A stretch of DNA of 64,000 nucleotides from Longimicrobiales bacterium. Lineage in GTDB: Bacteria; Gemmatimonadota; Gemmatimonadetes; Longimicrobiales; Gaopeijiaceae. The stretch covers positions 832,001-896,000 of the forward strand of contig OZ250165.1 of NCBI GenBank assembly GCA_965238005.1. The letters are read 5' to 3'. Every line of letters begins with the position of its first letter. Within the stretch, counting starts at the first letter, position 1. A program made the position numbers and the translations under genes. Of this stretch, positions 1-47,134 are shown piece after piece. The notes under the pieces are model-generated. The model did no database searches, was not told the DNA's origin, and saw nothing but the letters and a program-made list of their open reading frames with translations.

Positions 1-2
1 CG

Positions 3-2399: not shown

Positions 2400-2455
2400 T
2401 CTCTCGAAGGAAGAATCGAGCACCCAGTGGCAATCAACGCCCGATTTCCCCGGCA

Positions 2456-7620: not shown

Positions 7621-7651
7621 TCTTGACCCCTAACGGTCATGAGCCAGCGCC

Positions 7652-8896: not shown

Positions 8897-9061
8897 AGAC
8901 TGGCGGATGCAAGGGGATGGAGCGGCTCAGTACGGGACAAGAAACATCCTCATGTCTCATGATAAGTCAATATAAACAAGTCAGTTATGTACAATACGGG
9001 ACTTGGCTGGACGAAATGGTAATATCCTACTATGCAGCCCTCCGGGAAGGGTGTCGGACCG

Positions 9062-16127: not shown

Positions 16128-16184
16128 GCCCAATTGGCGGGAATCAAACAGCGGGAATCCGACCGGTAAATCTCCTAAGTTCAA

Positions 16185-17824: not shown

Positions 17825-18822
17825 GTGAGGATCCGTGGAAGGATCTGGAGCCCCTCAGCAGCACAAGCGTTATCAGTGCTCGGCGTGTGGACGCGACGCT
17901 CCCGTGGAGCTTCTTCTGGGCGAGAGGGATCGACCGTCGCTGCATGCTGGTCCTTGAGCATGGGCTCGAAGCGAACCCGAAGAGCCGGTTTCCGACCCTA
18001 CGCGGAATCGAGATCTTCGAGTCCGAAGGTGAACGGGAGGAATCTCGAATGCTCGCCTTCAAGCTACTCGTCCCCGAACACCGAGACCTGTTCTATCGGT
18101 TGTGCCGGGACATTGTAGGGAGCACAAAGGCTGCTGCGACCGAACATCAGGCGGTCGAGGTCACGCTGGCGCGGACATGGCGATGGCACCACCTGTTGCG
18201 CGGTGGAGACGACGGCCGGCTGTCACTTGAGCAGCAAAAGGGACTCATCGGTGAACTCATGGTGCTCCGTGATTTACTGTTGCCGAGTCTCTCGGAGGCA
18301 GATGCCGTTTTGGCATGGCAAGGGCCGCTCGGCTCGCCGACGGACTTCGTCATAGGCAGGGTTTGTATCGAGGCGAAGGCGCGCCGGGGTGCGGCAAAGC
18401 CGTTCGTGGCGATCTCCACACCCGCGCAGTTGGACGGCAGTGGCCTAGACGCGCTCTTCCTGCACGTCGTGGAATTGGATCGGGCACCGCCGGATTCAGG
18501 GGAAGGTTTTTCGGTGACCGAGGTGGCGGGGCTCATTCGGGATCGGCTTGTACCCGGTCATCCAGCGATGGCGGACTTGTATGAGAATCTATTGGCCGCC
18601 GCGGGATTGCGTTGGGACGACGACTACTCGGACGTGCGATGGCTCGAAGGAGCAAGCCGTCTGTTTGTGGTCGAGGGAGAGTTCCCCCGGATCGTTCCCG
18701 CCGTGCTGCCTGCAGGGGTCACGAAGGTGGAGTACGCGATTTCGCTTGTGGAGTGCTCGGAGTACGAAACGGACCAGGCGGCCGTCATCCAAGCTCTTCG
18801 GGGGCCCCATCATGTCGACTGA
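17821..18822 (+). CDS. PD-(D/E)xK motif protein (DUF4420-like)
   Basis: QKGLIGEL...WQGP...DF...IEAK motif; coupled to Z1 and AIPR. Confidence 0.8.
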   Translation: MSEDPWKDLEPLSSTSVISARRVDATLPWSFFWARGIDRRCMLVLEHGLEANPKSRFPTLRGIEIFESEGEREESRMLAFKLLVPEHRDLFYRLCRDIVGSTKAAATEHQAVEVTLARTWRWHHLLRGGDDGRLSLEQQKGLIGELMVLRDLLLPSLSEADAVLAWQGPLGSPTDFVIGRVCIEAKARRGAAKPFVAISTPAQLDGSGLDALFLHVVELDRAPPDSGEGFSVTEVAGLIRDRLVPGHPAMADLYENLLAAAGLRWDDDYSDVRWLEGASRLFVVEGEFPRIVPAVLPAGVTKVEYAISLVECSEYETDQAAVIQALRGPHHVD

Positions 18823-20887
18823 TCTCGAGGCCTTCTACGAGGAATTTTTCCAGGAGGTACACAGTACCGCTGAGGCGGATCAACAACTCGCCGAGGATGC
18901 CTTCTTCGACCTCTTTTGTCGCGAGCTGGTCGAATCTGGGGAGCTAGATACTGCCGATCGGGCGCAGTACATCGGGGCAAGAGGGTTGCGCGTCGATGGG
19001 TACGGAGGTGACCCGATCGAGACGAATGGGCCCTTCACGTTGATCATTGCGGACTTCAAGCAGTCGAACGAGGTCTCGACGCTCACGGCCACCGAGATGA
19101 CGGCAATCTTCAAGCGACTTGAGAACTTCCTGACCAAATCTATGGATCCGGACTTCCGCAACAGCCTTGAGGAGACCGCCCCCGGGTTTGGCCTTGCAGA
19201 TCTCATCGGTCGGCGTGTAAAGGGCACTTCGAAGATCAGGCTGCTGCTCATCAGCAACCGCCTTCTGAGCTCCCGCGTCGATAGCCGTGAGGCTGGTGAA
19301 TTTCAGGGTATTCCCCTCACATATGGAGTCTGGGACATTGGGCGCCTCCATCGATACGTGACCTCCGGTCGCGGTCGTGAAGACCTTGAGATCGACCTCG
19401 TGGCGGACTTCGGTGGCCCGCTCCTTCTCTTACCTGCACACCTTGATGGAGCTGGATATGAGGCGTACCTAGCGGCTGTTCCAGGAAGTCAGCTCGCCTC
19501 GATCTACGACCGGTGGGGAGCGAGACTGCTTGAGCAGAACGTCCGGTGCTTCTTGCAGGCCCGAAGCAAGGTGAACAAGGGAATCCGGAATACGATTCAG
19601 AATGATCCCGAGATGTTCTTCGCGTATAACAACGGAATCACCGCCACAGCTGAGAGCATCCGTACAGAACAGACTGCTCGAGGTCTACTACTGACCCATG
19701 TCACGAACTTCCAAATCGTGAACGGGGGCCAGACGACTGCCTCGCTCCATGCTGGGAGGCGGAACAAGGAAGTCGACCTTTCCAAGGTCTTCGTCCAAAT
19801 GAAACTCTCGATCGTGGATCCTGAGCAGTCCGAGGTGGTCGTGCCGAAGATTTCCGAGTTTGCTAACAGTCAGAATCGGGTCAACGCGGCAGACTTCTTC
19901 GCCAACCACCCATTCCACGTCCGGATGGAGGAGTTCTCGAGAAGGATCTTCGCACCGGCACCGGACGGGACGTTCGTCCAATCGAAATGGTTCTATGAGC
20001 GTGCGCGAGGCCAGTATCTCGATGCGCGAGCGTATCTCACGCAGGCACAACGGAAGCGGTTCGATCTTGAGTATCCAAGGAACCAGACGTTCTCAAAGAC
20101 CGATTTGGCCAAGTTTATAAACGTGTGGCACGGACACCCCGATATAGTAAGCAAGGGTGCCCAGAAGAATTTCGCGAATTTCGCGATGAGAATCGGAAGG
20201 GAGTTCGCGACCGCGCCGGACGGGTTCAACGAGACGTACTACAAGCACTCCATAGCCAAGGCGATCGTGTTCCGGCATGTCGAGAAGCTCGTGACGCGGC
20301 AGGATTGGTATGAGGGCGGGTACCGAGCTAATGTTGTGGCCTACACCATCGCGAAGCTGGCGCACGACCTAGGTGCTCGAAGGCAGGCTGTGGACCTTGA
20401 CAGCATCTGGCGGAGACAGGCCGTATCCCCAACTCTGAACGAGACTCTGTGCATAATCGCGAAGGCCGTTCATGATGTGATCGTTGATCCTCCCGAAGGG
20501 ATGCGCAACGTCACAGAGTGGGCCAAAAAGCAGGGGTGCTGGCAGCGGGTCCAGGATCCTGCGCCGGATCTGCCCATAGGACTGGACGCAGACCTTGTCA
20601 CAATGGAGCAGCGCAAATCAGCCGAACAGGCGGCGGTCAAGGAGCAGAAGGTCCTGAATGAGGTTGAGGCACTTATGGCTGTGTTTGAGGCAGGGAGTGA
20701 CCTCTGGCAGAACGTGAAGGATTGGGGAGAGAGCCATCGACTCCTGTCCCTGAAGGAGGCCGGCATCCTCGAGTCGGCCTGCTCAATGCCTGACCAGCTT
20801 CCAAGTGAAAAACAGAGCCTTGTGATCCTCGAGACGCTCAGGAAGCTCCAAGCAGAGGGGTGTCCGCTCGGCGATGGAATAGCGTGA
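18812..20887 (+). CDS. AIPR family (abortive infection phage resistance) protein
   Basis: LLEQNVRCFL, FFAYNNGIT, QIVNGGQTTAS, ANSQNRV, WFYERARGQY; start ATG 18812 overlaps the upstream gene. Confidence 0.88.
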   Translation: MSTDLEAFYEEFFQEVHSTAEADQQLAEDAFFDLFCRELVESGELDTADRAQYIGARGLRVDGYGGDPIETNGPFTLIIADFKQSNEVSTLTATEMTAIFKRLENFLTKSMDPDFRNSLEETAPGFGLADLIGRRVKGTSKIRLLLISNRLLSSRVDSREAGEFQGIPLTYGVWDIGRLHRYVTSGRGREDLEIDLVADFGGPLLLLPAHLDGAGYEAYLAAVPGSQLASIYDRWGARLLEQNVRCFLQARSKVNKGIRNTIQNDPEMFFAYNNGITATAESIRTEQTARGLLLTHVTNFQIVNGGQTTASLHAGRRNKEVDLSKVFVQMKLSIVDPEQSEVVVPKISEFANSQNRVNAADFFANHPFHVRMEEFSRRIFAPAPDGTFVQSKWFYERARGQYLDARAYLTQAQRKRFDLEYPRNQTFSKTDLAKFINVWHGHPDIVSKGAQKNFANFAMRIGREFATAPDGFNETYYKHSIAKAIVFRHVEKLVTRQDWYEGGYRANVVAYTIAKLAHDLGARRQAVDLDSIWRRQAVSPTLNETLCIIAKAVHDVIVDPPEGMRNVTEWAKKQGCWQRVQDPAPDLPIGLDADLVTMEQRKSAEQAAVKEQKVLNEVEALMAVFEAGSDLWQNVKDWGESHRLLSLKEAGILESACSMPDQLPSEKQSLVILETLRKLQAEGCPLGDGIA

Positions 20888-23900: not shown

Positions 23901-24150
23901 CGAGGACTGGACGGCTCGACCGCACGCACCGGATCACCGTGGCGGGGACGTGGAATGCCGACGAATGAGATCCACCGCCCGCATGTCCAAACCTTGCCCT
24001 TCGTCGCCGAGGAATCGGCACTCGCTCTGAGGACAGCGCTGCCGGACAACGGGACCGAAGACGAGTCCACGGGTCGCGCGTACGGTTCTCGCTCGCCAGT
24101 TTGAACGCGCGATGCCATACACGTGGTGCCTAACGAGGGGAGCCGGGACG

Positions 24151-24767
24151 ATGGAAGACTGGAGCTGTCCCCGACTGGATCGTCGGCAAGCGCTCCACCT
24201 GATCGGAGCGGGAGGGCTCGGTCTCCTTGCAGCCGGAAGAACTGCCGGAGGTCTCTTCGCGGCGCCGAGGCGTGCAGGGTCCGGAGCGCGGCAGGTCTCC
24301 TTCCAGGAGGGCGCGGTCATCCGCACGATCTTCACCGATCTGTCTCCGGATGCGCTCGCGCATGCACGACGCTATTCCATGAGCACCTCGACGGCGTCTA
24401 CTCGCGCGAGACGCGCCAGCTCCAGCTTCCGCCTCCGTCGTCGGCCAATATCGCTCCCGTGATTGCCGACATCGAAGAGGTGATGGACAGCGGCGTGATC
24501 TGCATCGTCGACGCGGGGCATCCCGATATGGGTGTGAACTACGACCACCTCAGGCAGATCTCCACAGAGACCGGCCTTCACGTCGTGGCGAGCGGCGGGT
24601 ATTACCTGCGGAACACCTATCCCGCCGAGATCTCGACGATGACCGAGGACCAGATCGCGGCACGACTCGTCGCCGAGGCCAACGCTGGTCGGTTTGGCGC
24701 GTACGGGGAGATCGGCAACATGGCCGGGCGCGCCGAATTCTTCCCCGACGAGATCAAGGTCTTCTGA
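24151..24767 (+). pseudogene. Phosphotriesterase-family protein with Tat signal, frameshifted and 3'-truncated
   Basis: LDRRQAL Tat motif in one frame, then TLFHEHL, IVDA, ASGGYY and GEIG in another; stops after about 200 codons. Confidence 0.7.
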
Positions 24768-25325
24768 CCTGCCCCCAAGAGCGGTACCACATCCTATGTT
24801 AGTCCCAGCACCTGTGGAGGGCCGTGAAGGACGGGCATCCTCAGGAACCAGGGCGACGGCTTAATCGCCTCAGGGGCCGGGGAAAGCCGCCGCAGGCGCT
24901 GTGGGGTCGGACGGTATTCTCGGGCGGTAACGCCGTCCGGTTGTAGGCGCGGCCGTTCGGATCCCTCACCGCGTCGGCCAACTGATGTCCACAATGGTGC
25001 GCGCCATCGCACGAAACGTACTCCACAAGGTGGCGTGGATATGTGACGACGGTAGGGATTCCCGCCAAACGATTCCGTTTTTCCGGCTATAGGGACACGA
25101 TGGAGTCAGGTCTTGTCAAACGGCAAGTGCGGCAGATCGTGCAGTCCTGATTGAACTTAGACGATTTCTTGCCGTAAAACACACAACTTGAATCCGATAC
25201 CGTCCAAGGAGTTCCGGGTAGGTGCATAACATCCAGTATTTACAACAGGTTACGTAGTTTATTTCTTGTCTCGTTCTCCAGCAGTGCCCTTTGTGATCCC
25301 GTTCCATCCCAGTTATGATTGGGGG

Positions 25326-26561
25326 ATGGATAATGTAATTCGATCTCCCGTCAAGCGCCGCCTAGGCAAGCCCAAGGGCCGCCATCCCCACAAGCGGCTC
25401 TCGAGCGCCTTCGTGCGCTCGGCACCGCCCGGCAGGCACTGCGATGGCAACGGTCTCTACCTTTACGTCCAGAAGACCGGAACCCGGAGTTGGATTCAGC
25501 GGCTCGTGATCCGGGGCCGCAAGCGCGAGCTCGGACTCGGCAACGCCCAACTGGTCTTGCTCGCCGAGGCGCGGGAGCAGGCGCTGGCCAACCGCAAGCT
25601 TGCCCGCGCGGGCGGCGATCCGCTGGCCGAGAAGCGGCGTTCGGCGGGCATTCCCACCTTCGCCGAGGCCGCTAAGCGCGTCATCGAGCAGAAGAGCGCC
25701 GGATGGCGCAACGCGGCGGTGCCGAGGAACTGGTATCGCAGCTTCGAGATTCACGTCTTCCCAAGGATCGGGAGGGTGCCGGTCTCCGAGATGACGAGCG
25801 CCGACGTGCTCGAGATCCTCACACCCATCTGGCACGCGAACCCGCCGACGGCCCGGATCGTTCGCCACCGCATCCGCGCCGTGCTGGAATGGGCCATCGC
25901 CATGGACTGGAGAACGGACAACCCGTGCGACCGGCTCCTGCCGGTGCTCGGCTCCCAGCAACATGTCGTCAGACACCGGAAGGCCCTGCCTCACCGCGAG
26001 GTGGGGGCGGCCACCGAGAAGGTCCGGGCGGCGAAGGCGGGCAAGGTGGACGCGCTGGCGTTCGAGTTCATGGTGCTCACGGCGGCGCGGGGCGTCGAGG
26101 TCCGCGGGGCGATATGGAGCGAGATCGACCGGGAGGAGCGCGTCTGGACGATCCCCGCGAGCCGGATGAAGAGCCTGCGCGCGCACCGTGTGCCGCTGTG
26201 CGGCCGCGCGCTGGAGATTCTCGACGCGGCGCGGAAGCTGGGCGGCGGCGGGAGTCCGATCGTGTTCGTCGGCAAGCGCGGCAGAGAGGTGGGCGGCGAG
26301 CAGATGGGCCGGCTGCTCAGGAAGCACGGGATCGCGGCGGTGCCGCATGGGTTCAGGTCGTCGTTCAGGGACTGGGCCGCCGAAGAGACGGACCACCCCC
26401 GCGAAGTCGTCGAGGCGGCCCTGGCCCATGTAGTCCGAAACCCGGTCGAGGCCGCCTACATGCGCTCCGACCTGTTCGAGCGCCGCCGTCGGCTCATGGA
26501 CGACTGGGCAGCCTACCTAGCCAGCGAGGGTCGGGAGCCGGAGGCCGGACGGAGCGGCTGA
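25326..26561 (+). CDS. P4-family tyrosine integrase (element carrying the Ntn protease and Bil-like operon)
   Basis: GRHCDGNGLYL, TAARGVE, PHGFRSSFRDWA, ALAH, AAYMRSDL. Confidence 0.92.
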   Translation: MDNVIRSPVKRRLGKPKGRHPHKRLSSAFVRSAPPGRHCDGNGLYLYVQKTGTRSWIQRLVIRGRKRELGLGNAQLVLLAEAREQALANRKLARAGGDPLAEKRRSAGIPTFAEAAKRVIEQKSAGWRNAAVPRNWYRSFEIHVFPRIGRVPVSEMTSADVLEILTPIWHANPPTARIVRHRIRAVLEWAIAMDWRTDNPCDRLLPVLGSQQHVVRHRKALPHREVGAATEKVRAAKAGKVDALAFEFMVLTAARGVEVRGAIWSEIDREERVWTIPASRMKSLRAHRVPLCGRALEILDAARKLGGGGSPIVFVGKRGREVGGEQMGRLLRKHGIAAVPHGFRSSFRDWAAEETDHPREVVEAALAHVVRNPVEAAYMRSDLFERRRRLMDDWAAYLASEGREPEAGRSG

Positions 26562-32603: not shown

Positions 32604-35321
<2,718 letters not shown>

Positions 35322-35742: not shown

Positions 35743-35760
35743 GCCCCGGGAGCCACTGTC

Positions 35761-36771
35761 ATGCAACTCCTGCCACCGCAGTCGATCGATCCGAACGTCC
35801 CGGCCCAGATCCCCGCGGATCAGCTCCAGGACTTCAAGGGGTTCCTGGACGTCGTGCTCGACACCGTGGTCGGTGGCGCGGCGCCCGACGTGCTCACGCT
35901 CGGCCACCAGCTGTGGGGCGGTCTCGCGGCGATCGTCGTCGCGTGGAGCGGGCTCAAGATCGCGTACAGCGGCACGCTAGAGCCGTGGGCGCTCGTGCGG
36001 GTCGTGCTCGGGATCGCGATCCCCCGGACGCTACTCCATTACTACAGCGTCCCGATCCCGGGCGTGGGCTTCACGTTTCCGGCCATGGTGGCGGCCGGAG
36101 GGATCTGGCTCCAGAACCTGTTCATCTCCGATGTCGTGTCGGTCGGCTACACGGAGATGACCGCGCTCGTCCAGGCGTTCGCCGCACGGCTCGGAGCGGC
36201 ATGGTCGGGCGGGAGCCTGATGACCCTCATGACCGAGGGCGTGAACGTCTTCTTCTCGTCCCTCGTCGCGCTGATGATGGGCGTGCCGCTCGTGCTCGGC
36301 CTGGTCGCGCTCTTCTGCCTGACCTACGCGCAGGTGATCTGGGCGCAGGTGGCGCTCGCGATCGTGATCCTGCTCGGCCCGGTCTTCATCCCCTGGCTGC
36401 TGTTCGAGCCGCTCGCGTTCCTGTTCTGGGGATGGTTCCGCACGCTCATGGTCTACACGCTCTACGGCGTCGTGGCCGGAGCCATCCTGAGGGTCTTCAT
36501 GGGCGTCGGCATGGGCTACGTCACGACCTACACCGGTGCTCTGATGGGCACCGGCTCCTCCGACCCGGCGGAGCTGGGGCTGTGGGTCGTCGTCCTCCTA
36601 CCGCTCGTCGTCTCCGGCCTGATGGCCGGCATGAAGGTGGGCGAGCTCGCCGCGATGCTCGTCTCAGGGTCCGGGTCCGTCGGGTCGGGCATGATGGCGC
36701 TCGTGGTCCGTGGAGGCGGACGCCTCAGCGCTGCCGCGAACCCCGCCCGCCCCCCAATCCCCGGAGGCTGA
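35761..36771 (+). CDS. virB6: VirB6/TrbL-like inner-membrane T4SS protein
   Basis: Polytopic; LAIVILLGPVFIPWLLFEPLAFLFWGW motif; Gly-rich tail. Confidence 0.75.
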   Translation: MQLLPPQSIDPNVPAQIPADQLQDFKGFLDVVLDTVVGGAAPDVLTLGHQLWGGLAAIVVAWSGLKIAYSGTLEPWALVRVVLGIAIPRTLLHYYSVPIPGVGFTFPAMVAAGGIWLQNLFISDVVSVGYTEMTALVQAFAARLGAAWSGGSLMTLMTEGVNVFFSSLVALMMGVPLVLGLVALFCLTYAQVIWAQVALAIVILLGPVFIPWLLFEPLAFLFWGWFRTLMVYTLYGVVAGAILRVFMGVGMGYVTTYTGALMGTGSSDPAELGLWVVVLLPLVVSGLMAGMKVGELAAMLVSGSGSVGSGMMALVVRGGGRLSAAANPARPPIPGG

Positions 36772-36782
36772 AGGAGACGTCC

Positions 36783-37451
36783 ATGAACCGAGAACACGAT
36801 GCCGGCCGCGAGTACGCGGAGATCTGGGGCGAGACCGTCGAGGCGAACCGGAAGCTCCGGACGCTGGCGATGATCCTCGCCACCACATGCCTCACGCTCG
36901 GCGTGCTCCTGCTCCGGGTCGCGACCGTCGAGCCGCCCCGCCCGATCGTGGTGCGGGTCGACGAGGTCGGCCGCGCCGAAGCGGTGGCCTACGAGGCCGC
37001 AACGGCGCAGGCGGATCCGCTCGATCCCACGACCAAGTACTTCCTGAACCGGTTCATCGCCGACTTCTATTCGCGGCGCCAGGCGACGATCGAGGAGCAC
37101 TGGACGCGGAGCCTCCGCTTCCTCTCGACCGAGCTGGCGAACGCGGCGTTCACGCGCGACGGCGCCGAGGTCGCCGCCATGGCGGCCGGCACCGCCGACA
37201 CCGAGATCCAGGTCGAGCAGGTCGTGCTCCGCATCCACCCCGCACCGGAGGCGCCGCACGGCGCGACCGCCGACTTCGACCTGGTCCGCCTCCGGCAGGG
37301 GCAGGAGACGCTGAGGGAGCGGTGGTCGATCACGGTCCGGTTCACGTTCCTCACCGTCATCCCCTCCGAGCTCGTCGTCTACAACCCGATGGGCATCCTC
37401 ATCACCTACCTCCAGGCCGACCGTGCCCTGGTCACGGAGCAGCCCAGGTGA
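36783..37451 (+). CDS. virB8: VirB8/TrbF-like protein
   Basis: Single TM, PIVVRVDEVG, C-terminal NPMGILIT. Confidence 0.75.
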   Translation: MNREHDAGREYAEIWGETVEANRKLRTLAMILATTCLTLGVLLLRVATVEPPRPIVVRVDEVGRAEAVAYEAATAQADPLDPTTKYFLNRFIADFYSRRQATIEEHWTRSLRFLSTELANAAFTRDGAEVAAMAAGTADTEIQVEQVVLRIHPAPEAPHGATADFDLVRLRQGQETLRERWSITVRFTFLTVIPSELVVYNPMGILITYLQADRALVTEQPR

Positions 37452-38383
37452 TCGCCCATCTGCGGGGACGGGAAGCGGCGCTCGAGCCGTTCGGGTGGAC
37501 GGGACGCCAGGCCGAGTGGATCGCGCTGGCATGTCTGCACAGCGGCGTGTTCACCCGCGCCCAGCTCTCCGCCTATCTACGGATCGATCGCTGGCAGGCT
37601 CTTCGGTTCGTCCGGGCCATGTCGGAGCGAAGGCTGGCAGCCGACGAGACACTGGAAGGCCGGAAAGTCTGCCGGATCTGTGGGCGCGGGATCTACCGCG
37701 CGCTCGGCGCCGAGGACATCCGCCACCGCCGGACCGCTTCCGATGAAGTGCTCCTGCGGCGCCTGCTCTCGCTCGACTACGTGCTCGAGCACACCGGCTT
37801 GTCGTGGCTGCCCACCGAGCTGGAGAAGGTCGGCGCGTTCGAGGCGCTCGGCATCGAACGCCGGCTCCTGCCCATCCGGGTCTACCGCGGAGCCGCTGGC
37901 AACACCCGGCGCTATTTCCCGCTTAAACTGCCGGTCGCGCTCGAAGCCGAGCGCGCCGTGTTCGTCTACGTCGATCCCGGACACGATACCACGACGGCGC
38001 TACGCTCGTGGGCCGTGGCACATCGCGGCCTCTGGGAAGCGCTGCGGGAGCGCGGCCGATCCATCGAGGTCGTGGCCGTCGTCCGCACCGTGAGGGAGCT
38101 CGAGCGGGCCCAGACGATCCTCGAGAACTGGACCAACACATCTACAGCATCCGGCCCCTCCGCCGCTCCGGAACCCGACAGTGCGGCCCGCCGCGAGATC
38201 GCCCGAATCGAGCAGGCCATCCGCGCCAAGGATGAGCGGGTGCTCAAAGAGTATGGCGACCTGCAGGCCTGCCTCAAGCGGATCGTCGAGCTGAAGGACC
38301 TCCACCGATCCTCGACTCCAGGAACGATGATCCACGGCTTCGCGACATGGCGCTTGAGACGGCTCTCTGGAGGCGGATTTTGA
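37448..38383 (+). CDS. Hypothetical protein (wHTH-like N-terminus) coupled to virB8
   Basis: GTGA overlap; 311-aa coding-like frame. Confidence 0.6.
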   Translation: MIAHLRGREAALEPFGWTGRQAEWIALACLHSGVFTRAQLSAYLRIDRWQALRFVRAMSERRLAADETLEGRKVCRICGRGIYRALGAEDIRHRRTASDEVLLRRLLSLDYVLEHTGLSWLPTELEKVGAFEALGIERRLLPIRVYRGAAGNTRRYFPLKLPVALEAERAVFVYVDPGHDTTTALRSWAVAHRGLWEALRERGRSIEVVAVVRTVRELERAQTILENWTNTSTASGPSAAPEPDSAARREIARIEQAIRAKDERVLKEYGDLQACLKRIVELKDLHRSSTPGTMIHGFATWRLRRLSGGGF

Positions 38384-38447
38384 ACGCGGATCGGCGAGCG
38401 TCGGTGCTGATCGGCGAGTGCACATCAGACAACGGGGTGCATGTGCA

Positions 38448-38653
38448 CCGAAACGCCATTTCCATGTGCGCGCCAGCGCTCCCTTATGTGGCTGGCTGTC
38501 TTGCAGTTGTGGCACGGCCGCCGGAGCTGCGACGCCGCTCCGGAGCTTTCGGCCGAAGAAGGGAGCGACCCCCCCTTTGGGGATGCCTCGATCGGCATCG
38601 GGGAGGGTTGGCATGTGCACACCCATGCCACCCTCCCACGCGGGGTCGCTCCC
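38448..38653. other. Conserved structured non-coding element upstream of virD4 (candidate oriT)
   Basis: 38448-38595 recurs at 56553-56700 with about 6 mismatches; 12-bp inverted repeat 38561-38572 / 38642-38653. Confidence 0.5.
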
Positions 38654-38687
38654 AGCCATGGATCCCTACGGGAAGGTTGTCACAGCG

Positions 38688-40205
38688 ATGCTGAGGCCGG
38701 CGACGCTCGTCCTCATGGGCCTCGCTTCGGCGGCCGCGATCGCCCACGCCTTCCGGGCGCCGTTCCCCGGACCCGGCGGCAACCCCGTGCTGGACTTGAT
38801 CGCCTACCACGATCCGGGCTTCCACACGGTGATCCGCGTCTGGTACTACGTGGCGCCCGCCGTCGCCGTGGTGCTCTTCGGCAGCCTCGGCCTCTCGGTC
38901 TGGAGAGTCTGGCTCCAGCCACGAGCGGGAGGAGGGCGCCGGGGCACGTTGCCACCCTGGCCCGCCTCGCCCGAGGACGAGACACCATCGCTGGTGATCG
39001 GCGAGCTCCACCATCCCGTCGTCCCGCGCGAGAGCGAGCGGCCGTCCTGGCTCGTCGTTCCCGAGACGGGGCTCTACACCGGCGTGCTCATCGTCGGGGC
39101 GGTCGGCTCCGGCAAGACCTCGGCCTGCATGTATCCGTTCGCCCAGCAGCTCCTCTCGTGGCAGGCCGACCGCCCCGCACGCCGGGCCAGCGCCTTGGTG
39201 CTCGAGGTCAAGGGCGACTTCTGCCACAGCGTGCGGGGGATCCTCGAGGAGGCCGGCCGCGTGGACGACTACCTGGAAATCGGGCTGGACGGGTCCTGGC
39301 AGTGGAACCCGCTCGACGATCCGCTGCTCGACACTTACTCGCTCGCCTACAGCGTCTCATCCCTGATCAACCAGCTCTTCGGCAAGAGCCGCGAGCCATT
39401 CTGGCAGCAAGCCTATACGAATCTCGTGCGCTGGATCGTCGAACTGCACCGGCTCCTGCCGGGGGGCTGGGTCACGCTGCAGGACGTCTACCGCTGCACG
39501 ATCGACGCGGAGCTGTTCGCGCAAAAGATCCGCGCGGCCCGGGACCTGGTGGCTGAGGCGTGCCCGGCGCGCGTCGTCATCTCCCACGACGACATGATCG
39601 GCCATCCGGAAGCGCTGAATGACTGGGTCTGGATATATACCTCCGGTGAGGACACGGTGACGTGCCGGCTCGACCCGGTCCTCCGGGATCGGCTCGCCGA
39701 GCTCGAGATCCCGTTCGAGACCGAGGAAGGCGAGAGCGGCGCAGGCAGCGAACTCAGGGAGCAGGTGGAGGCGATCGAGCGCTGGTACCTGAATGACTGG
39801 ATGGCGCTCGATGCCAAGCTCCGCACCTCGATCGTCGAGGGCATCTCCGTCTTCCTCTCGCTCTTCGACCAGCCGCAGGTCGCGAGCGTGTTCTGTCCGC
39901 CGCCGCCGGAATCGGATGAGTCCCCATCTATACATATAGGTACCGATGCGCCCGACGAGGATGCGGCGGCCGTCCGGCCCATGCCGGGCCTCCGCCGCCG
40001 GCTGCCGCCGCTCGCCGAGTTGATCGAGGGCGGCAAGGTCCTCGCGCTCAACATGCCCGCGGGCGCGAACCCGGCGCTCGGACGCGCGATCGGCGTGCTG
40101 CTCAAGAACGCCTGGATGCAGGCGCTGCTGCGGCGGCCCGCCGAGGCCGCCCGCCGGCCCGGCCGCTACCTCCGGCCCGCCGTGTTCATCTGCGACGAGT
40201 ACCAG
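38688..40205 (+). pseudogene. virD4: VirD4 copy 2, 5' part, interrupted at DEYQ
   Basis: Colinear with copy 1 up to FICDEYQ, then unrelated AT-rich sequence. Confidence 0.85.
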
Positions 40206-40575
40206 TCCGACAAGAAAAATATCATAACGCTATATGTAATAATTAGTTATGATGCCGTCGCTTGCCCGCGATCACCCCTGCAATCACCCTTTGCGCGGCG
40301 GGTAGCGGAATCCCATGGAGCAGCCCCGTTCGCCGTTCAGTCGTTCGGCCGTCCCGTGGGACCCGGCGTCGTCCCATAGCGACTCCCGGCAACTCAAGTT
40401 CGACAGCGGCCGCATCTCGGGGATGAGACACGCCTCTCAAAATGGCCGGCCCGCAGGGCGGCTGTCCAGTGAAGCAACCGGCAACCCGAAAGCCGCGACC
40501 ACATCGCGCGTCCCTGCAAGTTATCATGATGAGCGACGGGACCCTGGCCACACTTCGGGCGAGGAGAAGGGGATT

Positions 40576-40908
40576 ATGACCAAGGCAGACCTGGTCGAGC
40601 AGGTCGCCGATGCGGTTGGACCGCGAGTCACCAAGAGGGACTGCGGGCTGGTGGTCGACGCCTTCCTCGACGCTGTGAAGGACGCGCTTGCGCACGGGGA
40701 GGGCATCGAGCTCCGGGGCTTCGGCACCTTCAAGGTGCGGCACCGCAAGGGCCGCAAGGCCCGCAACCCCAGGACCGGCAAACCTGTGGAGGTCCCGCCC
40801 CGCGCGGTGCCCGTCTTCCAACCGTCGAGACACCTCCGCAGGCAGGTGGACCGAGGCCACAGCTCGTCCGTCACGGGGGAGCCCTTGGAGGCCGTTGGCA
40901 AGCCGTAG
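40576..40908 (+). CDS. HU/IHF-family DNA-binding protein
   Basis: MTKADLV...IELRGFGTF...ARNPRTG...PVFQPS. Confidence 0.88.
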   Translation: MTKADLVEQVADAVGPRVTKRDCGLVVDAFLDAVKDALAHGEGIELRGFGTFKVRHRKGRKARNPRTGKPVEVPPRAVPVFQPSRHLRRQVDRGHSSSVTGEPLEAVGKP

Positions 40909-41509
40909 CCTGCCCGCCACGACCGCGTCGCTGGCCGTGGGTGGAAGGGCTGGCTCACGCCCCTTAAGGTGCGTAAGCCAGCCCACGCAGTGTTTAACAC
41001 TGCGGCCTGGCAAGGGGGCGCTACGCCCCCCCTTAGACCCCCCGGCTTCCCGTCCCGCTGCCGGAGCGGCGGGCGGCGGGGTGCGACGCCCCCCGAACCC
41101 CGTCGCCGGTGCTGCGGCTGAGCGCTGCCCCGTCGTGGCCGACGATCCGGCCGACGTGATCCTCAACGGACCCGCAGCCGGGAACTTGGTCGTGACCGGC
41201 AAGGGCGTGAGGTTCCGCCCGTGGGGGAGTCCCGGCCGACGGGGTGGCGACCGCCGGGGCGACCGGCCCCGAGTCCCACCGAGCCCGGAACACCGCTCAC
41301 ACGGGGATTCCGGGCGTTCCGGGGCCGGTTGGGCGGAATCCGAGGCCGTAGGATCGCCTGTGACGCGCGAACTCGACACCCGGAGGGGTATCCCCCGGTT
41401 TCCCGACCGCCCTTCGCAGCCCCTTTGCTCGAATCACAGCAAAGAGGTTCTGCCCTGGGACGTTTCGGCTGCTCTTCAACGCACTGGTCGCGCGGCGTAG
41501 ATTGCTATC

Positions 41510-42325
41510 ATGATTAAGCTTACCGACATCTGGCCAGTCGAGAACCCGCACGATTACAAGGTGCATTTCGCGACTCGGAACAAAGATCGCACTGAGCCGC
41601 TTCTCGTCCTGGCACGCGACGCCGATGAATGGAAACGGTGGCAGGAATACCGCCCGAAAACGGACCAATTCAACCGGAAGTTCATCTTCTCGCTCGCGCG
41701 TGTCTACGACGAGGAGGACAGTTGGTTGTTTGGCGGGGTCTTCCGAGTCATTGAGCGCCTGCCCGAACGATACCAGGTTGAACTGACCGAACAAGGTGGA
41801 CCATTCGTTCGTCGCCTGAAGCTTCGCTCGCCCTATCGCGGCCGGGCGCGACGCGTGAACATGGAGGGGAGACTTGACGAGTTCGAGGTACAGGAAATCC
41901 TCCCCGAGCGCTATTCGGGCCTTCCATTCCCGGGCTTCGAGAGCATCGACCTAGCGTTCAGCGAGTTCGAGGTCCTCCACCGCAACAACCGCCCGGACTG
42001 GCAGGCGGCTTTGGAGAGCGTCAGTGGCGTTTACTTGATTACCGCGCGTACCCGAAGCGCGGTCCGTCAATACGTTGGCGCTGCCTACGGGGAACAGGGC
42101 ATCTGGTCGCGGTGGGTTGATTACCTGAAAACCGGTCACGGCGGAAACGCCGCGCTTCGAGAGCTTATTGGAAACGGGGGGTTACGTTACTGTCGCCGGC
42201 ACTTCCGGTTTGCTCTCCTCGAACACATGTCCCGGAATACGCTGGACGGGTCGATTCAGGACCGCGAGGCGCACTGGAAGAGAATCCTCGGAACCCGGGA
42301 CCGAGGAGGACTCAACCGGAACTAG
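41510..42325 (+). CDS. GIY-YIG nuclease family protein
   Basis: GVYLI...QYVG...RW...E...LN motif. Confidence 0.8.
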   Translation: MIKLTDIWPVENPHDYKVHFATRNKDRTEPLLVLARDADEWKRWQEYRPKTDQFNRKFIFSLARVYDEEDSWLFGGVFRVIERLPERYQVELTEQGGPFVRRLKLRSPYRGRARRVNMEGRLDEFEVQEILPERYSGLPFPGFESIDLAFSEFEVLHRNNRPDWQAALESVSGVYLITARTRSAVRQYVGAAYGEQGIWSRWVDYLKTGHGGNAALRELIGNGGLRYCRRHFRFALLEHMSRNTLDGSIQDREAHWKRILGTRDRGGLNRN

Positions 42326-43062
42326 CACTAGCGCTAGGCCAACCACATGAGGTCCCAGCATGCGGGTGCGCCTTCTCGAGACCCCAGCCTCCTGCGCCGC
42401 TGGACGCCGCGCCCGAACCCGCCGCCGGTGTGCTCGTGGCGGAGCGGCACCACCCCGGCCCGCTCCCGGCGCGATGCCGACGCACCATGCCACCGGTTGG
42501 AGGCATGGTGTCGGTCGCCCGGATCCCGAATTGCCGCGTCGAGGCGGGAGCCGGGCGACAGCCCGTGGACTTGCGCCGGAGCGCGGACCTGTCGGGGGTC
42601 GAAGGGGCGGAGCCCCTCGCCAGCCCTTGCCGGGGACCCGCGAAGCGTGGCCCCAAGGGGTATGCTGGCTTAGCCACATTAGAGTGGCTCAAGCCAGCCC
42701 TGCGGACGCCTCCGAAACGCGCTCCGAGCAGCCACCCGGAACAGCGGGCGAAGGGCCAACTCTTGCCCGCCAGATCGGCCGCCCGGTCGTTCATGAGCCG
42801 GTCGCTCCGAGGACCGAGAGCGGGGGCGGTAACGACGACGGCGGCGACTACGATGATCGGCGGGGAGCCCACCAGGCGCTCGTTCACGACGGCGGCGCTC
42901 TCTGCCGCGTGGCCGCGTTCCGCCCTACCGTAACCCCTCGGCGACCGGCGATCGTGCGTCAGAGGCGATCCTACGGCCCGCAGCTTTCCGGAAATGCCCG
43001 TGGAACGCCCCGGAAACGGCCTCTGAGCCCGTCGCGGAACCGGCGGCACAACAGGGGGGTGG

Positions 43063-44229
43063 TTAGGCTTCGGTGCTCGCTCTCCGCCCCGCCAGATACT
43101 CCGCCCACTGCTCCATCAGGACGCGGCGGCGCTCGAACAGGTCCGAGCGGGCGTAGGCGGCCTCCACCCTGTTGCGGACCGCGTGCGCCAGCGCCGCCTC
43201 CATAACCGCGTGCGGCGCGTCGGTGCGCTCCGCCGCCCAATCGCGGAAGCTCGAACGGAAGCCGTGCGGCACGGTCGCGATCCCGAGCGCCTTGAGAAGC
43301 CCGGCGAACTCGAAACTCGACAGCACCAGCCCCCGCGCCGACGGGAACACCCACTCCGAACGAGGCGCGTACGCCTTCGCCTCGGCCAAGATCTCCCTCG
43401 CTCGCGCCGACAGCGGCACCCGGTGCTCGCGCCGGCTCTTCATCCGCTCCGCCGGAATCGTCCACTCCCCGGCCTCCATGTCGATCTCCTCCCACCGCGT
43501 CCCACGCACCTCGCCCGACCGGCAGGCCGTCAGCACGAGGAACTCGATGCCCAGCTTCACCGCGACCCTCGCCTCGGCCCGCCGCACGGCCTCGACCGCC
43601 GCGGCCACCTCCCCGTAGGGCAGCGCCTTGTAGTGCTTCTGGATGCGAGGGGGTTTCGGCAACGCCGCCCCGATCGCATCGCCCGCCGGGTTGTCCACGC
43701 GGTAGCCCTGCGCGATCGCCCACCTCATCACCGTCGAAATCCGCTGACGGACCCGCTTGGCCGTCTGGTGCTTCTCGTTCCAGATCGGAAGCAACACGCC
43801 CATCACATCGGCCGATGAAATCCGGTCCACCCGCTTCCGCCCGACCCCCGGAAACGCGTACATGTGTAGCGTTGACATCCACTGGCCCGCGTGCCTGTCG
43901 GTCCAGGTCGGACGGTGCATCGCGAACACCTTGGCGGCCGCCTGCTCGAACGTCGGCACCGAGCGACGGGGTGTTGCCCTGGGGTCCCCGCCCGCTCTGG
44001 CCACCTTGCGGTTGGCCAGCGCGGCGTCGCGGGCCTCGGCCAGCGTCACGAGGCGGACGGGACCGAGCCCCAATTCTCTGCGCTTGCCGTGGACGAACAG
44101 GCGCTGGATCCACTGCTTGTAGCCGGACGGCTTGACCCGGAGCACGAGGCCGTGCTCGTCCCAGTAGAGGCCCGGCTGCCGGACGCTCCGCACGAAGGCG
44201 GCTGTGAGTTTCTTGCCGTGTCTGCCCAT
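43063..44229 (-). CDS. P4-family tyrosine integrase
   Basis: RELGLGPVRLVTLAEAR, TACRSGE, PHGFRSSFRDWA, ALAH, AAYARSDL. Confidence 0.92.
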   Translation of the reverse strand: MGRHGKKLTAAFVRSVRQPGLYWDEHGLVLRVKPSGYKQWIQRLFVHGKRRELGLGPVRLVTLAEARDAALANRKVARAGGDPRATPRRSVPTFEQAAAKVFAMHRPTWTDRHAGQWMSTLHMYAFPGVGRKRVDRISSADVMGVLLPIWNEKHQTAKRVRQRISTVMRWAIAQGYRVDNPAGDAIGAALPKPPRIQKHYKALPYGEVAAAVEAVRRAEARVAVKLGIEFLVLTACRSGEVRGTRWEEIDMEAGEWTIPAERMKSRREHRVPLSARAREILAEAKAYAPRSEWVFPSARGLVLSSFEFAGLLKALGIATVPHGFRSSFRDWAAERTDAPHAVMEAALAHAVRNRVEAAYARSDLFERRRVLMEQWAEYLAGRRASTEA

Positions 44230-44384
44230 CTGGTCACCCTTTCGCGATCACCCCTCTGATCACCCTTTCGGTGCTGGAACACACCGAACGCTCTGACACG
44301 GCAGTATAATATAAGTAGTTTTATAACAACAACTTCACTTGCTCTACGGGATTGCCTTAAACCTATCTGGACGGTGTGCAGAAG

Positions 44385-44921
44385 GAGTACCAGGCGTTCG
44401 CCACCGTGGGCCAGGACGACCCCGCTGGCGACGAGAAGGCCTTCGCGCTGACGCGGCAGTGCCGCTGCATCCCGATCGTCGCCACGCAGTCGATCTCCTC
44501 GCTCCGCTCCGTTCTGTCCGGCACGGACGCCTGGCGCACACTGGTCCAGACGCTCCGCACCCGGATCTTCCTGTCCTTGAGCGACGAGTCCTCGGCCAGG
44601 ATCGCGTCGGAGATGTGCGGCAGCGTCATGAAGACGCAGCCCTCCTACACGTTCACCGAGACCACGGGCCGGCCGGAGTTCTCGCTCCTGTCGGGACGCG
44701 CCGGAGGCGGACGGGGCACGATCGGCGCGAGCAAGTCGTTCCGGCAGGCGCGGGAGCCGGTCTTCACGCCCCGGGACTTCAGCCTCCTCGCCAACTATCA
44801 GGCGATCTGCCTGCCCTACGATGGCACGAAGTCCCTGCCGGCCCGGCGCGTCTACCTGAAGCCCCACTACCTGCCGAGGGGCACGGGTTACTGGCGGTTC
44901 CGCGAGGAGGGCCGGCTGTGA
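44385..44921 (+). pseudogene. virD4: VirD4 copy 2, 3' part
   Basis: Resumes at EYQAFATVGQDD and closely matches the copy 1 C-terminus. Confidence 0.85.
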
Positions 44922-45901
44922 AGCGCGCGAGCGGGATCGCGCACCTGCGACCGTTCCTGCCGGGCCTCGAGGCCGTGCTCGAGGATCCGGAGGTCTCCGA
45001 GCTCATGATCAACGGGCCGGGGAACGTCTGGGTCGAACGCGGCGGCGAGCTCGAGCCCATCGAGGCGCCGGCTCTCACCGCCGCCGCGCTCTACCGGGCG
45101 GCGATCCACATTGCGCGGCCGCTCGGGCTCGATCCCGCCGCCCGGCCCGTCCTCGACGCCCGGCTCGACGACGGCTCGAGGGTCGCCATATGCACGCCGC
45201 CCGCGAGCCCCCACGTGGCGATGACGATCCGCCGGTTCGGGGGCCGTGCGTTCTCCGCCGAGGACCTCGTCGGCCAGGGGGCTCTCCCCGAGACGGTGTT
45301 CCGGGCCGCCCGCGACGCCCTCCATTCCCGGCGCAACATCCTGGTCTCGGGAGGCACCGGCTCGGGCAAGACCACACTGCTGAACGCCCTGATCGAGCTG
45401 CTCCCCGAGGAGGAGCGGATCGTCGCCATCGAGGACACGCTCGAGCTCAGGATCGACCGGACCAACTGCCTGCGCTTCGAGGCCGGAGCCGCCGGCCTCG
45501 ACTCACCCGTGTCGATCCGCGACCTGGTCCGCCATGCGCTCCGCCACCGGCCCGACCACATCGTCGTCGGCGAGGTCAGGGGCGGCGAGGCCGCCGATCT
45601 GCTGCAGGCGCTGAACACCGGCCACGGCGGATCGCTCACCACCGTGCACGCGAACAACGCCCGCTCCGCGCTGTCGCGACTGGCGAGCTGCGCCATGCAG
45701 GCCGGAGGCGCCCTCCCCTGGGAGGTCACCTGCCGAGGCGTGGTCGACGGCATCCATCTGGTCGTCCACATGACCCGTCGAGGGGGCCGACGCTTCGTCG
45801 AGGAAGCGCTCCGTGTGAAGGGCTACGAGGCGGCCGCCAACCGCTGGCTCACCGAGACGATATGGAGGAAGGACGATGAAGAACAAACAGAAAAGGAGTG
45901 A
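44918..45901 (+). CDS. virB11: VirB11/CpaF-family ATPase, copy 2
   Basis: Same motifs as copy 1; GTG start overlaps the virD4 stop. Confidence 0.88.
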   Translation: MKRASGIAHLRPFLPGLEAVLEDPEVSELMINGPGNVWVERGGELEPIEAPALTAAALYRAAIHIARPLGLDPAARPVLDARLDDGSRVAICTPPASPHVAMTIRRFGGRAFSAEDLVGQGALPETVFRAARDALHSRRNILVSGGTGSGKTTLLNALIELLPEEERIVAIEDTLELRIDRTNCLRFEAGAAGLDSPVSIRDLVRHALRHRPDHIVVGEVRGGEAADLLQALNTGHGGSLTTVHANNARSALSRLASCAMQAGGALPWEVTCRGVVDGIHLVVHMTRRGGRRFVEEALRVKGYEAAANRWLTETIWRKDDEEQTEKE

Positions 45902-45905
45902 GGAC

Positions 45906-46109
45906 ATGGAAAGCGACGAGAAGATCGTCCGCGTCGAGACGCTCGACGACTTCGACCGCGAGCTCGCGCGCGACGGGGGCGAGGCCCTCGAGGTGCCAGC
46001 ATCGCTGGCCGAGCAGTACGGCCTCTTCCCCGAGGACGTGGGCACCGAAGACGAGATCCGGGACGCCTCGGAGGATCCGCACGGCCGGGAGGAGGAGGAG
46101 GACCGATGA
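45906..46109 (+). CDS. Small acidic hypothetical protein, copy 2
   Basis: Paralogue of 12105-12302. Confidence 0.6.
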   Translation: MESDEKIVRVETLDDFDRELARDGGEALEVPASLAEQYGLFPEDVGTEDEIRDASEDPHGREEEEDR

Positions 46110-47134
46110 AACACGACGAATACCACCGCCAGTTCGCCGATGCGATCATCGAGCAGATCCGCCAGGGCACGGCACCGTGGCAGAAGCCCTGGGGGCCGGG
46201 CGAGCGTGTGCTCCCCGCTAACGTCGATACCGGACGCTCCTACGCGGGAGGCAACAGCCTGCACCTTGCCGCCGTCCAGCAGGAGCGCGGCTACGGCGAC
46301 GTGCGCTGGGGAACCTACCGCCAGATCCAGGCCCGGGGCGGACAGGTGCGGAAGGGCGAGCAGGGCACCCGCATCCTCTCATTCCAGGACCACCGGAGGA
46401 TCGCCGTCACCGACGAGCGCGGCCGGCCCGTCAGGGACAACGAAGGCAAGCGCGTCTACCGCCACGAGCGGATGCGCGCGCCCGTCGTCCGGCAGTACAC
46501 CGTCTTCAACGCAGAGCAGGCGGACGGGCTCCCGGCCCGGCCCGCGCCCGCTGCCGAGCCGCTCTGGAAGGCCCACCAGGAGGCCGAACGCGTCCTCGCG
46601 GACAGCGGCGTCCCCGTCCGTCACGTGGCGGGGGACCGGGCGTACTACAACCTGAACCGCGACGAGATCGTGCTGCCCGAGCGGGCACAGTTCCCCTCTG
46701 CCAATCACTACTACCAGACCGCGCTCCACGAGCTGGGGCACAGCACGGGCCACCCGGAGCGGATGAACCGCGCCACCCTCGTCGAGGGGATGAGCGAAGG
46801 GTTCGGCTCGCCGGCCTACGCGAAGGAGGAGCTCCGCGCCGAGATCAGCGCCATGATGACGGGCGAGCGGGTCGGCGTGGGCCACGACCCGAGCCGGGGC
46901 GCCGCCTACGTCGAGGGCTGGGTCGCCGCCCTCAAGGAGGACCCCCGCGAGATCCGCCGCGCCGCGGCCGACGCACAGAAGATCTCCGACTTCGTGCTCG
47001 CCCGAAGCCGTGAGCGCGAGCCCGAGCGCGAGCCGGCGCCCGTGGCGGCCACCCGCGCGCCCGCCCGGGAGCCCGCCGTCCGGCCGGAGCTTCCGCTGCC
47101 GCTACCGAACCGGAGCTTCGGCCCGCGCCGCTGA
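46106..47134 (+). CDS. ardC: ArdC antirestriction protein, copy 2
   Basis: Paralogue of 12299-13327 with the HELGH motif. Confidence 0.88.
   Translation: MKHDEYHRQFADAIIEQIRQGTAPWQKPWGPGERVLPANVDTGRSYAGGNSLHLAAVQQERGYGDVRWGTYRQIQARGGQVRKGEQGTRILSFQDHRRIAVTDERGRPVRDNEGKRVYRHERMRAPVVRQYTVFNAEQADGLPARPAPAAEPLWKAHQEAERVLADSGVPVRHVAGDRAYYNLNRDEIVLPERAQFPSANHYYQTALHELGHSTGHPERMNRATLVEGMSEGFGSPAYAKEELRAEISAMMTGERVGVGHDPSRGAAYVEGWVAALKEDPREIRRAAADAQKISDFVLARSREREPEREPAPVAATRAPAREPAVRPELPLPLPNRSFGPRR

Follow-up and report, generated by a model that had tools for sequence, protein, structure and literature searches.

The locus described here raises the question of how a small mobile element comes to lie in the middle of a gene for conjugative DNA transfer, and of what this position means for the two elements involved. 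The window, i.e. the whole stretch of 64,000 nucleotides that was analysed (C1:832001-896000 of the single 4.84-Mb contig of this Longimicrobiales genome), carries an element at 40197-44393 that interrupts a gene for a VirD4-type type IV coupling protein (T4CP copy 2) of an integrative and conjugative element (ICE) at the residues F-I-C-D-E-Y-Q. The element has a length of 4,188 bp (40206-44384 plus one core copy) and is flanked on both sides by the 9-mer GAGTACCAG. It is very probably a site-specific islet of a family recognizable by the combination 'HU + P4-type integrase', which occurs mainly in sponge-type Gemmatimonadota and for which the Walker-B codons of T4CP genes serve as attB.

An intact paralogue in the same window, T4CP copy 1 (9032-11101, 689 aa, with TrwB_AAD_bind and TraG-D_C domains), was used to define the split. 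In the alignment, the N-terminal part of copy 2 showed 75% identity to residues 1-514 of the paralogue and the C-terminal part 92% identity to residues 512-689, so that the halves overlap by exactly E-Y-Q and no residue is lost or gained. The frame of the N-terminal part starts at 38658 (M81 of the open reading frame (ORF) 38418-40379) and reads ...RPAVFICDEYQ, with YLRPAVFICDEYQ as its final stretch, up to 40205; from there, 58 unrelated codons follow before the stop at 40377-40379. The C-terminal frame starts at 44385 with EYQAFATVGQDD... (EYQAFATVGQDDPAGDEK..., EYQAFATVG...) and ends with the stop at 44919-44921. An earlier note on this DNA had described a split at D-E-Y-Q with a 9-bp repeat and had stated that excision would restore the frame. 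The split is exact with respect to the paralogue, and precise excision would, in silico, rejoin T4CP copy 2 in frame; the crossover itself is re-read below as an overlap of 7 bp.

The interrupted stretch A-V-F-I-C-D-E-Y-Q corresponds to the hhhhDE pattern of a Walker-B motif. A Walker-A motif, GAVG[ST]GKT (GAVGSGKT in copy 2), is situated about 360 residues upstream of the split, and the Pfam matches to TraG-D_C and TrwB_AAD_bind start at residue 506. Homologues of this T4CP are annotated by their sources as 'type IV secretory system conjugative DNA transfer family protein' or 'TraM recognition domain-containing protein'. Within the motif, the overlap G-TAC-CAG runs from the wobble base of the Glu codon to that of the Gln codon and thereby covers exactly the three wobble positions of E-Y-Q.

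Relatives of the element were sought in three collections. The scan with the integrase, performed on one genome per species, returned 80 loci, and the 14 loci with at least 70% identity were examined. The DNA search covered 401 genomes of the same order, with at most two scored candidates per genome, so that its counts are lower bounds; matches were found in 69 genomes, all within the family of the window, and 26 of them, which were at least 80% identical and either reached an arm or were long, were inspected, weaker ones being left out. Places found twice were merged (L009=L169, L015=L170, L011=L182, L017=L181 and L018=L191). In metagenome contigs scanned with the integrase, no close relative was present (best identity 55%, and one partial match at 77%).

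Among the places examined, at least 35 distinct ones hold an integrase at least 80% identical to that of the window element (W), and 10 of these 35 are situated at the Walker-B site of a T4CP gene. At least ten insertions in seven genomes share this site, six in forward orientation (W, B, C, L172, L174 and L010) and four in inverted orientation (L169, L170, L171 and L173). The site-specific targeting of the Walker-B codons, as proposed in the earlier note, is in agreement with these data. Seven of the insertions are complete (W, 4188 bp; B, 7887 bp; L174, 3700 bp; L010, 8434 bp; L170, 5954 bp; L171, 5166 bp; L173, 5657 bp), and all seven are bounded by the 9-bp repeat and by T4CP halves reading ..F[IV]CDEYQ and EYQ[AS]FATVG. 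The insertions C, L172 and L169 are one-ended; for L169, a search for the missing end was unsuccessful.

The genome of the window itself contains four copies (W, B, C and D), with integrases 88-100% identical at the protein level. Copy B (702154-710049, 7,887 bp) interrupts another T4CP copy with the same junctions as W. In copy C the integrase end is joined to the C-terminal part of a T4CP gene with a flank identical to that of B, and the other end is absent. Copy D (about 2109806-2113400) is the one place with the same 9-mer in another gene; its integrase-end core GAGTACCAG is followed by a Gly/Tyr-rich coding region.

The insertion site follows the overlap. With GTACCAG or GTATCAG as overlap, 10 of 11 places are in a T4CP gene. 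The overlap GAACCAG was found at three places (L175-L177), two of them in a chromosomal gene reading ENQTLMILEEP..., and TTCCCAG or TTCCCTG at five places with diverse flanks (L012, L179, L180, L184 and L182, the last at an integrase C-terminus). Nine places are at the 3' end of a structured module described below (L013, L014, L016, L181, L183, L185, L187, L191 and L194), three have the core of this module class with other flanks (L186, L189 and L190), and four are rearranged or at a contig end (L178, L188, L192 and L193). As regards the refuting condition named in the earlier note, namely homologous elements at unrelated sites, one close copy (D), with the same 9-mer, and the sister clades with other overlaps do occupy unrelated sites. 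Separately, it was observed that L011/L182 interrupts a different integrase gene near its C-terminal end, following ..RRRLMAD, and that the elements L023 and L033 (about 9800-9990; integrases 71-72% identical) interrupt yet another gene for a P4-type integrase within its box II motif (..RSSFSYWAAEETDHP).

One of the forward insertions, L010, is found in a chromosome-level metagenome-assembled genome of Bryobacterales (Acidobacteriota). Over 2,269 bp this copy shares 99.4% identity with W, against 78% for the T4CP DNA next to it and about 50% for the T4CP protein. This near-identity of the element next to a divergent flanking gene points to a recent movement, independent of the host ICE, to the same codons. 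The genome of L018/L191 (G383:C41) was placed in the family of the window and was left out of the cross-phylum cases.

The attP core deduced from the seven complete elements is AAGGA-N7-TCCGA. The forward elements give ...AGAAGGA-GTACCAG-TCCGACAAG... (AAGGA-GTACCAG-TCCGA) and the inverted elements ...GTAAGGA-CTGGTAC-TCCGAACAG... (AAGGA-CTGGTAC-TCCGA). The short inverted arms GGA/TCC are unchanged between the two orientations, and the central seven bases alone are reverse-complemented. In tyrosine recombination the asymmetry of the overlap alone determines the orientation of insertion, and a flip restricted to the central 7 bp is as expected if strands are exchanged across these bases. What looks like a 9-bp duplication is best read as this 7-bp overlap plus two bases that are common by chance to the core arm and the target, namely GA at the left side of forward elements and TC at the right side of inverted ones.

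The phylogenetic tree of the integrases (33 rows) showed that the clades track the overlap class. W grouped with L010 (100/98), B, C, D, L172 and L174 formed a second clade (100/100) and the inverted elements a third one (80/96). The clade with GAACCAG and TTCCCAG overlaps (100/98) joins these three T4CP clades at 91/94, with an unresolved inner order, and the clades of module-targeting integrases fall outside this group. Six loci with rearranged, broken or partial genes or arms (L178, L188, L179, L192, L193 and L194) and the partial matches L049 and L064 were left out of the tree, and the five duplicate loci were entered once.

Unoccupied target sites were also compared. In the genome of the window, three full-length T4CP genes read GAATACCAG (GAA) at the site and one fragment reads GAGTACCAA, the sites being located at 842559, 695735, 4833493 and 2735406. 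When the 401 genomes of the order were searched with a degenerate pattern for empty sites, 64 of them, all in the family of the window, gave matches, and all eight synonymous codon combinations of E-Y-Q occur at unoccupied sites among the matches listed. Occupied T4CP sites are a small minority, and perfect sites are often empty.

The anatomy of the element is summarized in Table 1. The integrase aligns end to end with a paralogue and has the three Pfam domains Arm-DNA-bind_3 (PF13356, E 1.3e-14), Phage_int_M (PF22022, E 6.6e-28) and Phage_integrase (PF00589, E 2.3e-18). The stretches ..CRSGEVRG.., ..PHGFRSSFRDW.. and ..EAAYARSD.. are present, which we take to be the catalytic Arg, His-x-x-Arg and Tyr motifs. 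The repeats which had been noticed near 40267 and 44243 are real arm-type repeats: of six matches to RTCACCCYT in the window, where 1.39 are expected, five are at the element ends and all of these are on the plus strand; six matches were reached in 1 of 100 shuffles. The HU-side arm is conserved in B, L174, L170, L171 and L173, and homologues of the HU protein are present in sister elements of all target classes. A tblastn search with a MobP relaxase of the same genome gave no match inside the element. The earlier description of a P4-type integrase with its own HU and without relaxase was accordingly retained.

Table 1. Features of the element, the interrupted T4CP gene and the neighbouring ICE genes (positions in the window).
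Feature	Position	Strand	Remarks
TrbL/VirB6	35743-36768		near T4CP copy 2
VirB8 domain	about 36807-37425		near T4CP copy 2
T4CP copy 2, N-terminal part	38658..40205	+	residues 1-514 of paralogue 9032-11101
attL core GAGTACCAG	40197..40205	+	overlap GTACCAG = 40199-40205
HU-side attachment arm	40206..40300	+	AT-rich 40206-40255; arm-type repeats 40271-40279, 40283-40291
HU/IHF-family DNA-binding protein, 110 aa	40576..40908	+	Bac_DNA_binding PF00216, E 5.5e-31
Structured module copy A	40940..41140	+	hairpins including a covarying stem around a TGT-TNAA-ACA loop
uzuA-like gene, 271 aa	41510..42325	+	PADLOC UzuA profile PDLC03973
Structured module copy B	42545..42725	-	inverted relative to copy A
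P4-type (heterobivalent) tyrosine integrase, 388 aa, full length	43063..44229	-	three Pfam domains
Integrase-side attachment arm	44230..44384	+	arm-type repeats 44233, 44247, 44259; AT-rich; CTGGACGG; ...AGAAG beside core
attR core GAGTACCAG	44385..44393	+	overlap = 44387-44393
T4CP copy 2, C-terminal part	44385..44921	+	TraG-D_C, TrwB_AAD_bind; 178 aa plus stop
VirB11-like ATPase	44939-45901		T2SSE, E 1.2e-44; long ORF 44339-45901, frame differs from T4CP C-terminal part
ArdC	46106-47134		near T4CP copy 2

The 271-aa ORF between the two modules had been regarded as a GIY-YIG nuclease. A GIY-YIG-like character is consistent with a language-model look-up in Atlas, which as a lead places the protein among 'GIY-YIG nuclease family' clusters (0.97), and a GVY..YVG motif is readable in its sequence, although no Pfam family matches it even at E 10. 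What changed is the assignment of the cargo, since the protein matches the UzuA profile with an E-value of 3.6e-46 (residues 23-271, profile positions 23-278 of 278) and is now considered a homologue of the Uzume defence protein. Uzume is described in a preprint as a single-gene defence system with a GIY-YIG-like domain (bioRxiv 10.1101/2024.10.26.620412). Relatives of the element carry GmrSD, McrBC, HsdM (type I restriction-modification) or a TonB receptor as cargo. A separate observation concerns L172, which encodes at 6704-7447 a 248-aa protein with a NikA-like relaxosome-accessory domain and a GIY-YIG domain; a larger sister element has it together with GmrSD and HsdM. No similarity was found between this protein and the 271-aa ORF. 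The stretch 42720-43126 of the window is apparently missing from relatives.

From this anatomy, the following course of events can be proposed. The attP site would consist of arm-type integrase sites on both sides of the core AAGGA-GTACCAG-TCCGA, and the integrase would exchange strands across the 7-bp overlap GTACCAG, probably with the element's own HU acting as DNA bender. The corresponding target is the last base of the Glu codon and the Tyr and Gln codons of D-E-Y-Q in VirD4-type genes, where insertion bisects the ATPase gene and precise excision would rejoin its halves. Being conserved and presumably dispensable for the host, such an ICE gene could offer a landing pad that is portable across phyla. 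The UzuA cargo would be an anti-phage gene and, as relatives carry other defence genes, the element appears to behave as a small defence islet. Lacking a relaxase, it may rely on its paired inverted modules as an origin of transfer (oriT) for mobilization in trans. The element might still be active at present.

The two modules, each of about 170-200 bp, flank uzuA in inverted orientation, and the genome has related copies at about 35 other or similar sites in all. Upstream of three of the five relaxase genes in this genome, a module is situated at about 200-250 bp in the same orientation. An alignment of 12 module sequences gave a consensus with 35 pairs; in the central hairpin the pairs 77:94, 79:92 and 80:91 are kept through two-sided changes in 6-7 of the 12 sequences each, with at most one broken pair. 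A search of 38000-46000 against Rfam revealed no family, with two sub-threshold chance matches only. By its position the module may be an oriT, and a role as terminator or RNA may be considered as well. It was also noticed that the 3' end of the module (...GAGCGCCGCTCCGCCA|) serves as insertion site for an entire clade of sister elements, with L013, L014, L016, L017 and L018 (about 9640-9850) among them.

The ICE segment around T4CP copy 2 is incomplete. It is homologous to the other backbone copies in this genome from 35322 to near 48358 of the window. In another copy, VirB9 (CagX) and VirB10 (TrbI) are located directly upstream of the equivalent boundary, and homologues of them lie upstream of four backbone copies. 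No match to VirB9/VirB10 was obtained in the window, and their place is taken by an IS30-like insertion sequence (IS) gene (33586-35040) inside an IS3 fragment (32642-33686). No relaxase is encoded near T4CP copy 2, MobP relaxase genes being located elsewhere in the genome; the VirB4 family PF03135 has no match in the genome. Because the backbone is cut at 35322 and has neither VirB9/VirB10 nor a relaxase, the segment is a remnant of an ICE, and the insertion thus has no live transfer function to control here. Elsewhere in the genome there are three full-length T4CP paralogues, and most T4CP copies of the genome are fragments. T4CP genes of this genome have been struck at the start codon, near residues 195 and 264 and at 512-514, by at least three integrase lineages.

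Some neighbouring observations concern these other lineages. Among the integrases of other lineages, at C1:740429-739275, 2750404-2749220, 716481, 773875 and 4824796, some have their junctions inside T4CP near residues 195 (..KGDFCH) and 264 (..WIVELHR) and others inside the helix-turn-helix (HTH) of an IS3-type transposase (SERRACRVLG). A second P4-type integrase of the window (7652-8896, minus strand), with 55% identity, forms the end of an approximately 10-kb island (1-9031), which carries an MmeI-family restriction-modification gene (96-2399) and encodes a protein of 1385 aa with an MqsA-like HTH (2456-6613); its junction adjoins the start codon of T4CP copy 1 (..CCTACT|ATGCAG), and the ICE backbone resumes upstream, shortly before the start of the window, at C1:827678-831010. 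At 15902-20887, a cluster with Z1-domain, DUF4420 (PD-(D/E)XK-like) and AIPR (abortive-infection type) proteins follows the tyrosine-recombinase gene 14964-16127 of ICE copy 1. A third P4-type integrase (25266-26561, 53% identical) lies beside a phosphotriesterase-family fragment (24123-24767), and the region 24123-26561 may be another split target.

Several results weigh against the reading of the element as a mobile islet specific for Walker-B codons. Occupancy of the target is low, as by hand count the exact 9-mer is present at 61 of 150 unoccupied T4CP sites among the matches listed. Copy D shares the 9-mer, yet its flank is non-T4CP and its left end is truncated. In L010, one IS110 and two IS1595 copies lie between the core and the HU-side arm repeats, and since these three IS elements part the arm repeats from the core, this copy is probably immobile. 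No sequence match to a solved structure in the PDB was obtained for the T4CP (689 aa; the last 219 aa at E 10), for which reason the Walker-B assignment is made at the motif level, from the motif itself and the Pfam start at residue 506. No excisionase (Xis/AlpA-like) was recognised among the element ORFs of at least 55 aa and a G+C fraction at third codon positions (GC3) of at least 0.70. Excision was not demonstrated in four of 24 metagenome runs, searched as contigs at 90% likeness, and the picture there is ambiguous: a joint 40196->44385 appeared in one run (X6) in 2 contigs, its shorter side having 33 letters, and the sequences breaking off at 40205 and 44385 resemble intact T4CP, but paralogous intact T4CP genes give the same picture and the joint is therefore uninformative either way. 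The attP junction pattern AAGGASTRSYASTCYGA was not found in 261 genomes of the family, one unrelated variant being matched; contigs and assemblies cannot reveal rare circles. As for the module, its possible oriT role is positional, and the same module also lies directly downstream of many integrase genes, e.g. at 7470-7650 beside the stop codon of the integrase at 7652.

That a degenerate prophage or island landed here at random, with the 9-bp repeat as a transposition-type duplication or an assembly error, is extremely improbable. The 9-mer itself is not rare, the genome having 70 copies of GAGTACCAG, of which six belong to element ends and one to an empty T4CP site, but identical junctions are present in seven genomes within divergent T4CP genes, the element has the layout typical of a tyrosine integrase, with arms and core, the split is exact against the paralogue and the genome is a single contig. 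Another proposal is that of a regulated switch, in which the element excises upon induction of conjugation and restores the T4CP, so that both ICE transfer and its own mobilization depend on excision. The earlier note had favoured such a hyperparasite making ICE transfer conditional, and this part of it is not supported at this locus: the host ICE segment is a remnant without VirB9/VirB10 and relaxase, no excision product was found in the four contig-only runs or the 261 genomes, and no excisionase was recognised. Insertion does remove an essential ATPase motif which precise excision would restore, the site has been used repeatedly and in both orientations, the cross-phylum identity speaks for recent movement, a relaxase-associated module is present without a relaxase, and the same hypothesis has been proposed for Firmicute elements in traG (PMC5357655). 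On the other hand, the occurrence of both orientations makes a fixed transcriptional coupling to the T4CP operon unneeded, the three full-length T4CP paralogues could complement in trans, and many copies are one-ended or IS-ridden. A regulatory coupling of this kind, which might still apply to intact ICEs, is unlikely.

The insertion could also have been selected because it sterilises a conjugative element, which would abolish transfer of a competitor or spare the cell the cost of conjugation, the ICE remnants then becoming stable landing pads for defence islands. The repeated cutting of T4CP genes in this genome, at no fewer than four positions, would fit such warfare or domestication, as would the insertion of relatives into integrase genes of other elements (the box II motif for L023 and L033, the C-terminus for L011), the fragmentary state of most T4CP copies and the defence genes carried as cargo. 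However, perfect sites are seldom occupied, contrary to a strong general selection for knock-out, and conserved ICE genes are also plain neutral 'safe harbours'; this explanation is given little probability. The same applies, as a doubtful extension, to the idea that the islets with HU and integrase depend obligately, as satellites, on a single ICE family, cross phyla by means of the relaxase-associated module, insert again wherever a coupling-protein gene has GTACCAG at Walker B, gate intact ICEs reversibly and are engaged in a silent-site arms race at the overlap. Because the overlap covers the wobble positions of E-Y-Q, ICE alleles could escape by synonymous change, and the elements could keep pace through an altered or flipped overlap (GTACCAG, its reverse complement, and GTATCAG as read at one junction). 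Such an escape by an 'immune allele' was considered and not demonstrated, given the 9-mer kept at the 61 listed sites. The reading of a site-specific defence islet with the Walker-B codons as attB is therefore preferred.

If true that such elements gate or sterilise ICEs, they would be relevant to gene flow in sponge microbiomes. Independently of this, the elements form a clean natural series, in which one integrase family with constant core arms shows an overlap that is either changed, with a new target, or reverse-complemented, with the same target in opposite orientation. This could yield compact, HU-self-sufficient integrases with programmable overlaps.

Nesting of mobile elements in conjugation genes is known from Firmicutes. 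Integrative and mobilizable elements (IMEs) with serine recombinases are described inside traG (VirD4), maff2 and snf2 of ICEs of the Tn5252 superfamily, such as IME_Sco1050_traG_site1/2 and Tn6104, and their authors propose that conjugation-induced excision would restore the gene (PMC5357655, PMC5704250). Nested 'matryoshka' IMEs within Faecalibacterium ICEs are reported as well (PMC12084326). The element of this study resembles the traG IMEs in being small, site-specific and located inside an ICE coupling-protein gene with a disruption that is reversible in principle, and also in that conserved ICE genes offer several target sites and close integrases differ in their targets. The streptococcal elements in virD4 to which the earlier note referred do exist, but they use serine recombinases (PMC5357655), and Firmicute traG IMEs mostly have relaxase or replication modules, whereas here a P4-type tyrosine integrase is found together with arm sites and an own HU. 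Moreover, the element has no relaxase and carries a defence gene, its hosts belong to Gemmatimonadota and Acidobacteriota, and the Walker-B codons are occupied in both orientations. No paper on a tyrosine-integrase element in the Walker-B site of a T4CP, or on elements of this kind in these phyla, was found in the open-access literature searched. The nesting documented for Firmicute serine-recombinase IMEs can thus be extended to tyrosine-integrase defence islets of Gemmatimonadota and Acidobacteriota.

With the heterobivalent tyrosine integrases of the lambda/HK022/P4 type, in which target choice shifts with the overlap sequence, the family shares a three-domain integrase, repeats in two arms, inverted core sites around a 7-bp overlap, a bending protein and the occupation of different sites by sister integrases with different overlaps. 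In contrast to these, the target is a protein-coding motif of another mobile element instead of an intergenic site or a tRNA/tmRNA gene, the element brings its own gene for the bending protein, and a natural pair of lineages with reverse-complemented overlaps exists. The mobilizable genomic islands of SXT/R391 ICEs are likewise without relaxase and carry an oriT resembling that of the helper (PMC5704250); here the candidate oriT is the repeated structured module found elsewhere upstream of relaxase genes. Those islands integrate in chromosomal genes and not in the coupling-protein gene of their helper. Gene-restoring excision, for which skin/sigK and the phage in comK are cited as analogy in PMC5357655, is paralleled by the in-frame interruption with a short direct repeat, whose excision would restore the ORF, while here the interrupted operon is truncated and regulated excision would be hypothetical. 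To these known systems, the locus adds the Walker-B site, the pair of lineages with flipped overlap, a near-identical copy in another phylum and the Uzume cargo.

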